From positions 2,195 through 66,194 of the forward strand of contig JAISWR010000004.1 in NCBI GenBank assembly GCA_031270985.1: a stretch of 64,000 bases of DNA. The letters are read 5' to 3'. The position numbers and the translations under genes are program-made. Below, in pieces: positions 2,405 to 63,440 of this stretch. The stretch comes from Bacteroidales bacterium. GTDB lineage: Bacteria > Bacteroidota > Bacteroidia > Bacteroidales > UBA4181. Positions within the stretch are counted from its first letter, which is position 1; each line of letters opens with the position of its first letter. The notes below the pieces were generated by a model. It saw only the letters and a program-made list of their open reading frames with translations, did no database searches and had not been told where the DNA came from.

Positions 2405-2412
2405 TATTTTTG
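2405..2412 (+). promoter_or_regulatory. Candidate Bacteroides-type -7 promoter element (TAnnTTTG)
   Basis: TATTTTTG lies 22 nt upstream of the ATG at 2434. Confidence 0.35.
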
Positions 2413-2433
2413 CAACCGTTAATTGCGTCTGTC

Positions 2434-2523
2434 ATGAAAAAATTTTGGTTGACGACGTTTTCTGTACCCCTGTTTGTTTCCTGTGATAATTATGATTCGA
2501 TACATCGACATGGAACAGGATAA
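2434..2523 (+). other. 29-codon ORF encoding only a lipoprotein signal peptide plus 12 residues (mini-lipoprotein or 5' remnant of a lost lipoprotein gene)
   Basis: MKKFWLTTFSVPLFVSCDNYDSIHRHGTG followed by a stop. The signal peptide and lipobox (LFVSC) are textbook, and a -7 promoter match precedes the ORF. No long ORF continues in any frame. Confidence 0.3.
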
Positions 2524-2735
2524 CCGGATCCCTTTGCTGGCGGTGATCGCCGTGGAGCGGCTTGGCGTAAGTGCAGACGCTTTATAGACCACAGGCATAT
2601 TCTGTCCGTTGGATGTCCGACCGCCGGACAAGACACCGCCTTGCAAAAAGCCCGTTTTGCGGATGGCAGACTTGCTTGTTTCGCATCTGTCTGCCGACAC
2701 CTATGCGTATTATCGCAGCCTTGTGCGACAACACA

Positions 2736-2869
2736 ATTGTAATAGTTTAGTAAACAAAAGTATGTAGGATTTTATAGACTACCTAATTAGGTAGTCTATA
2801 AAATCAGTGTAATGGTTTAGATATTAATATTTTATAGGAAATAACTACCTAACTTTTGCGGAGTTAGGG
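2736..2869 (+). mobile_element. MITE-like structured repeat, copy 1 (short form)
   Basis: 134 bp, near-identical to 42044-42178 (two substitutions and one 1-nt indel by eye). It is also similar to the reverse complement of 56896-57031. It contains a perfect 38-bp palindrome at 2768-2805 and ends in the hairpin CCTAACT-N7-AGTTAGG. Confidence 0.8.
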
Positions 2870-41824: not shown

Positions 41825-42013
41825 AGAGATAACCATCGAACGATCCTTGTCCGCAAGAGCGAAATCCTGAAAATAAGTCAGGAGAATCCGCACAGTTGAA
41901 ATATGCATGTGTAAAATCGGTTATACCGATAACATGTCGCTTCGATCTTTATATGCCATCTACCCAAACATTAGATAGCATTTTCATTTTAAACATAAAT
42001 TACGGGATTTATC

Positions 42014-42177
42014 CCTAACTTCGTCATATTTACCCCGTCTATGATTGTAATAGTTTAGTAAACAAAAGTATGTTAGGATTTTATAGACTACCTAATTAGG
42101 TAGTCTATAAAATCCGTGTAATGGTTTAAATATTAATATTTTATAGGAAATAACTACCTAACTTTTGCGGAGTTAGG
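42014..42177 (+). mobile_element. MITE-like structured repeat, copy 2 (long form with terminal inverted repeats and flanking direct repeat)
   Basis: 164 bp. The ends are CCTAACTTCG... and ...CGGAGTTAGG (9 of 10 inverted). GATTTATC occurs immediately on both sides (42006-42013 and 42178-42185). The internal perfect palindrome is at 42077-42114. Confidence 0.8.
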
Positions 42178-42204
42178 GATTTATCTCATTGCCCGCATCC
42201 ATCG

Positions 42205-56895: not shown

Positions 56896-57061
56896 CCTTA
56901 ACTTCGCAAAAGTTAGGGAGCTATTTTCTATGAAATATTAATATTTAAACCATTACGCTGATTTTATGGACTACCTAAATTTAGGTAGTCTATAAAATCT
57001 TACATACTTTTGTTTACTAAACTATTACAATCATAGACGGGGTAAATATGACGGAGTTCGG
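56896..57061 (-). mobile_element. MITE-like structured repeat, copy 3 (inverted orientation, diverged)
   Basis: The reverse complement aligns with copies 1 and 2 with roughly ten substitutions and a 2-nt insertion at the palindrome centre (AATT to AAATTT). The palindrome is at 56960-56999. The long-form left end is shared with copy 2. Confidence 0.75.
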
Positions 57062-57557
57062 GTTTAATATTTCCTTTTGCGTTTTTTGGGCGAGCGCCAA
57101 GAATGTATTCATATCCGTCTTTTTCAAGCGCCGTTATGTTACTGTCGGACAGCAGTCCTGCATCGGCTATGACAACCGGCTTGCCGAAAGAAAACCGGTT
57201 TGACATATTCTGCAACACTGGAATAAATGTATGACCTTCAAATATATTGCCCTCAAAAATTTCATAACCGATCGTAAAGCCGTCCGAATATCTGTTCCGG
57301 ACCAATTGCACGGATACTGTCATTGCTTAGGCTTTCGACAAAGTTGTTGAGTAATAATTCGTATTTATTTATAAACTGTTTATCGTTTAATCAACTTTCT
57401 CTACTCATGTGCTGCCTTGCCTGTTCCTCCAAACGAACTATATCCGATTCCGTGCAACCTGTCCGAAACTGCATTCTACCTTGTATCTTCCCCGTCTTTT
57501 GGAGACGACATGAACACTTGCCGTTCCATACTTGTTGTATTTTCGACGTAGAAACAT
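57062..57557 (-). pseudogene. IS1634-family (IS4-like DDE) transposase remnant
   Basis: The N-terminal piece MFLRRKYNKYGTASVHVVSKRRGRYKVECSFG (57557 downward) ends in a stop. A middle piece then reads ..GYEIFEGNIFEGHTFIPVLQNM...PVVIADAGLLSDSNITALEKDGYEYILGAR (ORF 57000-57323). There are internal deletions, and the 3' part is replaced by the repeat. Confidence 0.6.
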
Positions 57558-57706
57558 AACACAAAGTTACGAAAATTTCACGCAGGACACCTTTTTTATT
57601 CTTTTTATCCAGAAATATCTGATTATCAATGATAAATTTTTGAAACGAAAAAAGTGCGAAAAACAGGTGAAATCATCATTTTCTCAGTCCTTAATCGAAA
57701 ATTGCC

Positions 57707-62498: not shown

Positions 62499-63440
62499 AT
62501 GAACCTGTTCCGGCACATTACATTGGATCGTGAGGCAGAGGAGATGTTGCATGCAGGCTTACCGCCGGAAGTGCAACTTATCGCCGCCAATGGCGCCGAC
62601 CCGGAGGAACGGCAGTTTGAGCGGTTTTCCGAGTGCGAGATTGCATTCGGGAATATACCGGCAAGTTGGTTGTCGCGGTCTGCCGCATTGCGGTGGCTGC
62701 AATTGGAGTCTGTCGGCTTCGAAGCCTATAATGGGGCGCTTGCGGAGTTCGGGAGGCGTGGCGTGCTCACCAATCTGCACGGTTTTTTCGGGCAGCCCGT
62801 AGCAGAAAGCGCCCTTGCAGGTATCATGGCATTGAAGCGAGGCATTGACCGGTTGACGCTGCTGAAAGAACGGCAGGAATGGGAGGGGAGCACATTGCGC
62901 CCACAACTCGGCTTGCTGCAAGGAGCAAAGACGCTCATTGCAGGCGGAGGAAACATCGGTCATTCCATCCGGAAACTGCTGTCGGGATTTGATGCGGAAA
63001 TACTCATTTACGACAGGCATCCGGAGCGAGGTGACCTTTCAACGACCGACGCTTTTGATGGCGAACTGCCGTCGGCAGATGTGGTGATTGCCTGTCTGCC
63101 GGAGAATGAGGCATCGAAGCATTTTTTCAACGAAAGGCGTTTTGCATTGATGCCCCCGTCGGCGCTGTTTGTCAATGTGGGCAGAGGTGGCGTGGTGGAC
63201 GAGCCTGCGCTGATAAAGCGGCTGAAAGAAGGACAAATCGCGGGAGCAGTGCTGGACGTTTCCTGCACGGAACCGTTACCGCACGGACACGAACTGTGGA
63301 ATTGTCCCAACACCGTCATCACCCAGCATACGGGCGGCGGCAGTAAAGGAGAACAAACAGGAAAAGTGGCGGTTTTTCTAGACAATCTATCTCGGTATAT
63401 CGCAGGGCAACCGCTGAAAAGGATAGTAACCGCCGGATAA
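62499..63440 (+). CDS. D-2-hydroxyacid dehydrogenase family oxidoreductase
   Basis: 313 aa from the ATG at 62499. AGGGNIGHSI is the GxGxxG motif, and VNVGRGGVVDE and ITQHTGG are also present. Confidence 0.85.
   Translation: MNLFRHITLDREAEEMLHAGLPPEVQLIAANGADPEERQFERFSECEIAFGNIPASWLSRSAALRWLQLESVGFEAYNGALAEFGRRGVLTNLHGFFGQPVAESALAGIMALKRGIDRLTLLKERQEWEGSTLRPQLGLLQGAKTLIAGGGNIGHSIRKLLSGFDAEILIYDRHPERGDLSTTDAFDGELPSADVVIACLPENEASKHFFNERRFALMPPSALFVNVGRGGVVDEPALIKRLKEGQIAGAVLDVSCTEPLPHGHELWNCPNTVITQHTGGGSKGEQTGKVAVFLDNLSRYIAGQPLKRIVTAG

Follow-up and report, generated by a model that had tools for sequence, protein, structure and literature searches.

The repeated segment that occurs at three places in the window (the whole stretch of DNA analysed, 64 kb long) is very probably a MITE, a non-autonomous DNA transposon of 165-167 bp, of which the segment at 2736-2869 is a truncated copy. 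By structure, four properties speak for this: it is small and non-coding, ends in terminal inverted repeats, is bordered by a target duplication, and is dispersed in multiple copies. On the best reading of its sequence features, it would be mobilised in trans by a DDE transposase. All three copies lie where an earlier note on this DNA had placed them, and that note's view that the element is undescribed still stands: there is no Rfam match, and no description was found in the literature, which was searched with sequence strings and for Bacteroidales and termite-gut MITEs. The copies in the window, their parts and the adjoining remnant are as follows; boundaries of the element rest on an eight-copy nhmmer profile and on alignments.

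2736..2869, forward strand: copy 1 of the MITE, 5'-truncated, model positions 32-165
2768..2805, no strand: central palindrome of copy 1, a perfect 38 bp made of two inverted 19-nt half-sites, GATTTTATAGACTACCTAA
2859..2869, forward strand: right terminal inverted repeat of copy 1, CGGAGTTAGGG; it pairs with CCTAACT at 2848-2854, giving the terminal hairpin
42007..42012, forward strand: left duplication of copy 2, ATTTAT
42013..42178, forward strand: copy 2 of the MITE (W2), full length, 166 bp; left repeat CCCTAACTTCG at 42013-42023 with one mismatch, perfect 38-bp palindrome at 42077-42114, right repeat at 42168-42178
42179..42184, forward strand: right duplication of copy 2, ATTTAT
56896..57062, reverse strand: copy 3 of the MITE (W3), full length, 167 bp, decayed; terminal repeats CCCGAACTCCG / CGAAGTTAAGG with three mismatches to each other, palindrome of 40 bp with one mismatch
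57063..57667, reverse strand: remnant of an IS1634-family element, not MITE (NCBIfam NF033559, positions 176-250 of 483; blastn and tblastx against its full-length relatives L015 and L016, from metagenome contigs)

The unit had previously been taken to be about 134 bp long, which is true of copy 1; copies 2 and 3 run 31 bp further to the left and reach 166-167 bp. This left extension, CCCTAACT(C/T)CGTCATATTTACCCCGTCTATG, is common to copies 2 and 3 and includes an exact 23-mer. Copy 1 lacks the left terminal repeat, with 31 bp missing in all and the left-end 23-mer absent nearby, and is presumably immobile. Two substitutions and one 1-nt indel separate copies 1 and 2, as was noted before (98.5% identity); the identity of copy 3 to either of them is about 92.5%. 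Between rlmB and copy 1 lies a decayed gene (window positions 2410-2735) that begins with a lipoprotein-like signal peptide (MKKFWLTTFSVPLFVSCDN) and continues in broken frames; this pseudogene and the missing left end of copy 1 may be the product of a single deletion. A search of the 64-kb window with the eight-copy profile finds no further copies or solo ends; one weak profile match (63307-63397) falls inside a dehydrogenase gene and is attributed to chance.

The ends of the element are sharply defined. Across the eight full copies, which come from two genomes, similarity between copies starts at CCCTAACTCCG and stops at CGGAGTTAGGG exactly, and these consensus ends are perfect 11-bp terminal inverted repeats; the repeats are exact at both ends in five of the eight copies and carry one to three mismatches in the other three. 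The palindrome, GATTTTATAGACTACCTAATTAGGTAGTCTATAAAATC, sits at the exact midpoint of the element between arms of 82 and 83 nt. Its description as a perfect 38-bp palindrome is borne out for copies 1 and 2, with the 40-bp, singly mismatched form in copy 3; the window contains six occurrences of a 17-nt palindrome half-site where 0.11 would be expected. The hairpin CCTAACT-N7-AGTTAGG, likewise present as described, is subterminal and re-uses the right terminal repeat. The motif CCTAA(C/T)T recurs at the left end (+), in both palindrome halves (+/-), at the right subterminal position (+) and at the right end (-), an arrangement compatible with repeated transposase-binding sites. The earlier note had offered multiple recombinase or transposase sites as one of two readings, and the transposase option agrees with the CCTAA sites, the terminal repeats, the duplications and the dispersed copies.

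Two other internal features do not survive closer comparison. The direct repeat TGTAATRGTTTAG, which had been reported on either side of the palindrome, is rejected as a functional site: it matches at 12 of 13 positions in copy 1 only and at 11 of 13 in copy 2, which 24% of shuffles attain, and the copies of the assembly JAISWE01 do not conserve it. The layout of half-sites as two arrows and a reverse arrow had been derived from the truncated copy 1 and is not supported. An origin of the element by foldback is also rejected, the arm interiors being non-homologous in both inverted (p = 0.63) and direct (p = 0.90) comparison. In the right part of the element, a 14-bp AT palindrome, AAATATTAATATTT (alignment columns 118-131; 42129-42142 in copy 2), reads AAATGTTAACGTTT in a second subfamily made up of the copies at loci L001, L003, L005 and L011. 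The two halves change symmetrically (A>G with T>C), which keeps the palindrome, and one additional G would form a G-U pair; this single event is uninterpretable alone.

The flanks of the full copies point to a duplication of the target on insertion. The 6 nt on the left and right of each copy, with the number of matching positions, are as follows; W2 and W3 are copies 2 and 3 of the window, and L numbers are loci in other genomes.

W2: ATTTAT / ATTTAT, 6 of 6
L005: TTTAAT / TTTAAT, 6 of 6
L006: CTTACG / CTTACG, 6 of 6
L003: TTTAAT / TTGAAT, 5 of 6
L010: TTTAAT / ATTAAC, 4 of 6
W3: ATTAAA / TTTAAC, 4 of 6
L001: TGCAAG / TTTAAC, 3 of 6

The two flanks of one copy match each other better than they match those of other copies (p about 0.012, 1.2% of 5,040 permutations reaching the observed total), and three perfect pairs are reached in 1.4% of 5,040 permutations; these statistics are based on only seven full copies, three of them perfect. 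The background of matches between flanks of different copies is high (3.6 of 6) because an NTTAAN-like target, AT-rich and centred on TTAA, is common to the copies. A duplication of 6 bp is the simplest fit to the flanks. Two alternatives were tried and rejected: copy 2 does not fit a duplication of 5 bp placed immediately against the ends, and a 4-bp duplication (TTAA) combined with a variable terminal base would need that base to have changed in compensation from copy to copy. On the 6-bp reading, the predicted join of the flanks with a single 6-mer in the frdB/tex spacer that holds copy 2 is ...GGGATTTATCTCATT...; in the empty-site comparison, the nearest relatives of Tex (82% identical protein) and TolC (88% identical protein) are non-syntenic at the insertion points.

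The copies lie at the 3' ends of genes, and all six copies for which both neighbours are known lie in convergent spacers, for which random intergenic placement would give about one in four. The earlier statement that the window copies occupy convergent spacers needs qualification for copy 3, which has the 3' end of a DUF6599 gene on one side and the transposase remnant on the other; the next intact gene, encoding an ABC ATPase, is co-directional. Copies with good duplications are found in intact convergent spacers whose neighbours are complete to the C-terminus (MgtE / TolC; FKBP; PCMD; frdB / tex); the other neighbour of the FKBP-side copy, read from its open reading frame, is presumably a valyl-tRNA-synthetase-like gene. 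The three copies with mismatched flanks (W3, L010 and L001) each adjoin a truncated gene, which fits insertion followed by adjacent deletion, or recombination between copies. W3 adjoins the IS1634-family transposase remnant. At L010 (JAISWE010000137.1, 3245-3700), the MITE copy comes after a tRNA-Ser gene and a hairpin, and beyond it a tyrosine-recombinase-like gene (MLGHTNVKTTQIYAKV...) is preserved in its last ~35 codons only. The MITE appears to lie inside, or to truncate, an integrative-element remnant at the tRNA gene. At L001 (JAISWE010000151.1, 861-1163), which has the worst-matching flanks (3 of 6), a 100-codon open reading frame with a signal peptide takes its stop from the TAA of the element's own end (CCC-TAA).

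These observations suggest the following course of events. A DDE-type transposase encoded elsewhere would bind the terminal repeats, perhaps together with the internal repeats that contain CCTAA, and insertion would proceed through a 6-bp staggered cut. Copies would survive, or be targeted, just 3' of genes, mostly between convergent genes, and could later take part in adjacent deletions or rearrangements; such later events would explain both the mismatched flanks at truncated genes and the 5'-truncated copy 1.

The distribution of the element is patchy. The exact 19-nt half-site was scanned against one genome per GTDB species (185,579 species representatives) and is found in seven contigs of JAISWE01 ("Bacteroidales bacterium Nc350_bin110") and one contig of JAISWC01 ("Tannerella sp. 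Nc350_bin100"). The copy-number and spread search that had been proposed yields, beyond the three copies of the window, at least eight further copies in two other MAG species, all with different neighbours, with full copies in only two species among the 185,579 species representatives. Four further matches to the 19-mer, outside Bacteroidales (Arenibacter, Pricia, Saccharibacteria and Clostridia), are isolated and non-palindromic, one of them intracoding, and are dismissed as chance. No copy was found in JGI metagenome contigs scanned with the exact left-end 22-mer, in viral contigs scanned with four patterns, among plasmids and phages searched by blastn, or in three related MAG contigs (64 kb). 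Two MEGAHIT k119 contigs (L008 1-114 and L012 1-114, in JAISWE/JAISWC) stop after about 114 nt of the element, close to the point at which the copies begin to diverge; contigs break inside the repeat, so that copy numbers are underestimates. All sequences come from metagenome-assembled genomes, in which mis-binning could inflate the number of host species; that there are at least two different hosts is certain.

Window copies and other-genome copies are 87-93% identical. For comparison, the one orthologous block common to the window and the JAISWE01 loci, a PfkB kinase and a GTPase, is 72.5% identical as DNA (74% and 64% as protein). Such a patchy distribution is better explained by recent spread or activity than by vertical conservation. 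Conservation is uneven along the element, with a mean pairwise identity of 96.3% for the left arm and 86.1% for the right arm, an inequality that is not explained by simple trans-mobilisation.

The conservation of the left arm, far above the host background, is one of the points in favour of a different reading, namely that the repeat is a structured non-coding RNA gene or a cis-regulatory 3'-UTR RNA, present in several copies by functional need and not through mobility; an RNA with alternative pairings was the second reading of the earlier note. It is predicted to fold strongly (z about -6), its covariation score slightly exceeds that of shuffles (reached by 2 of 500), three pairs change on both sides, and the complementary strand bears a TAnnTTTG motif. 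We nevertheless consider this reading very unlikely. Both strands fold, each with a terminal helix and a central hairpin (z of -6.2, -6.7 and -7.4; -7.4 as DNA), and they fold equally well because the pairing comes from the inverted repeats of the DNA. Among the eight full copies, 38 of the 54 predicted pairs are invariant, and the three double-changed pairs are not above shuffles (270 of 500). The double changes are confined to weak AT hairpins, and a single subfamily split accounts for two of the three pairs; the raised covariation score is thus due to two weak right-arm AT hairpins that separate two subfamilies, that is, to single events. There is accordingly no convincing covariation among these eight copies, and the RNA reading of the earlier note is left unsupported. 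Rfam 15 gives no match at gathering score over the window, and at E<1 only eukaryotic miRNA and snoRNA entries of the kind expected as hairpin noise. Exact terminal repeats, variable 6-bp duplications and a patchy distribution would not be expected of an RNA gene, and copy 1 lacks 31 nt that include one side of the closing helix.

Nor does a protein explain the repeat, in agreement with the earlier observation that no called gene does so: each of the six frames is interrupted by a stop codon within 15 codons of either end, and no stretch stays open for more than 26 codons. The GC content of the element is 30-34% as against about 48% for the window. On the complementary strand, the motif TACTTTTG at 2755-2762, a match to six specified bases that had been read as a possible Bacteroides -7 promoter, is present as reported; its conservation is uninformative because the surrounding region is conserved throughout, and no TTTG stands at -33. 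The right-end hairpin with its T-rich flanks is terminator-like on both strands in a simple scan (a consensus match only), and one might speculate that hairpins read through from the neighbouring genes would act as terminators or RNA-stabilising structures for either strand. It is a tentative and rather doubtful possibility that the element is more than a passive MITE, either through mobilisation by an undescribed group of Bacteroidales transposases with a 6-bp NTTAAN target and CCCTAAC-type ends, or through co-option of its strongly conserved left arm and its hairpins, or both. If co-opted, these parts would serve convergent genes as a terminator working in both directions or as a module that stabilises RNA, or would form an outward TAnnTTTG promoter giving rise to antisense RNA.

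Another reading takes the prominent perfect palindrome and the subterminal hairpin as those of a REP/BIME-like element spread by a hairpin-recognising RAYT or IS200/IS605-type HUH transposase; a location in convergent spacers, as in REPs, and a GTAG tetranucleotide within the palindrome would agree with it. This too is highly improbable, since elements mobilised by HUH enzymes lack terminal inverted repeats and target duplication, both of which are present here. The GTAG lies near the loop and not at the 5' foot of the palindrome, a REP pair would not be expected to span 166 bp with arm interiors that lack homology, and no RAYT was seen in the loci examined.

The IS1634-family remnant that adjoins copy 3 raises the question of a parent element. 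The remnant has its own left end, CCTGTTTTTCGCAC, at about 57667 and keeps its sequence to about two-thirds of the transposase gene; there is an internal deletion of ~400 bp, and the last ~680 bp of the IS are missing. It stops within ~5 nt of the left end of copy 3, and no IS sequence is found beyond the MITE. The terminal repeats of its relatives read CCTGT(T/C)TTTCGCA...GGGACACCC, and the ends of the IS take the form CCTGTTTTCCGCAxTGGGACACCC in the relatives and in the window remnant. A match of the consensus to the terminal region of a known IS, which the earlier note had named as evidence against its interpretation, is not seen for the remnant and its relatives: they end in CCTGTTTTCCGCA..., which agrees with the MITE end at 7 of 11 positions. 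In 80 IS1634-family loci there is no MITE copy and no MITE-type end in a terminal position. The adjoining element is accordingly rejected as the parent of the MITE, being a separate element with different ends, and no cognate transposase was found in the window remnant or the 80 related loci.

Many of the metagenome contigs among these relatives (L015-L025, 1.7-2.2 kb) are each made up of one complete IS1634-family element (~1.7 kb), and the closest database homologues of the window transposase fragment are all short fragments of 86-132 aa. At L006 (JAISWE010000066.1, 2885-3373, reverse strand), an open reading frame about 2 kb from the MITE copy has an N-terminus that we take to be IS110-transposase-like. 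IS110 elements have no terminal repeats, and this frame is therefore an unlikely partner.

It is scarcely probable that the repeat is instead a piece of some larger mobile element or a site at which one recombines (an IS or transposon end, an attC-like site or a recombinase attachment site). Copy 3 does adjoin an IS remnant, one JAISWE01 copy does adjoin a tRNA-Ser gene and a recombinase tail, and CCCTAAC / GTTAGGG match the integron attC core motifs (RYYYAAC / GTTRRRY) at six of seven positions. Against this, the 166-bp unit has the same two well-defined ends in eight unrelated contexts, with nothing conserved outside, the IS1634-family ends differ, the copies are single and dispersed between housekeeping genes and not in cassette arrays, and site-specific recombination yields no variable 6-bp duplications.

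Recognition of the repeat as a probable MITE would account for three unannotated repeats in the window and for the breaks of related assemblies at the element, and adds a MITE family to the uncultured Bacteroidales, in which few have been catalogued. Copies with mismatched flanks beside truncated mobile-element genes suggest a role in local deletions and rearrangements. Copies so alike, in hosts whose genes agree at ~72%, speak for recent horizontal spread or activity, and the element might serve as a marker of DNA exchange among gut Bacteroidales that live together. It is of an ordinary kind, and the family is so far known from only a few genomes of uncultured Bacteroidales; MITEs of its type are already familiar, and general understanding is unchanged.

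In form and likely side-effects the element resembles those of the Correia, RUP and ERIC type. Correia elements (NEMIS, of Neisseria), RUP and ERIC are intergenic, ~100-160 bp long, and have terminal inverted repeats and short target duplications; when co-transcribed they form long hairpins, and they can affect transcript stability, termination and promoters. Sequences, hosts and target sites are nevertheless unrelated, Correia duplicating TA as against the NTTAAN-like 6 bp here. REP/BIME elements share with the present one a palindromic structure, multiple copies and a position between convergent genes, but REPs are shorter, have a conserved GTAG at the 5' foot of the palindrome, and lack terminal inverted repeats and target duplications. 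Among the transposase families, the ends of IS1634 elements and of the MITE both start with CC, and the remnant adjoins copy 3; duplications in the IS1634 family, of 5-6 bp, would fit the 6 bp seen here. The ends of IS1380-family and piggyBac-type elements, which begin CC(C)TAG..., resemble CCCTAAC, and their AT-rich or TTAA targets would fit NTTAAN. Their duplications measure 4-5 bp (TTAA for piggyBac) and directly abut the end; the present element differs in its 6-bp duplication, and the resemblance of the ends extends over ~6 bases only.

The nearest described analogues belong to the same order: MITE239, MITE700 and MITEPgRS/MITE464 of P. gingivalis (PMC2575886). The P. gingivalis MITEs share terminal repeats with ISPg1 and ISPg3, so that a parent IS is identified for them, whereas none was found for the present element; they are also longer, at 239-720 bp against 166 bp, and a central perfect palindrome, present here, is not among their features in the parts of that study drawn on for this comparison (PMC2575886). 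They are small, non-coding and multi-copy, carry terminal inverted repeats and are associated with genome rearrangements (PMC2575886), all of which likens them to the element of the window.
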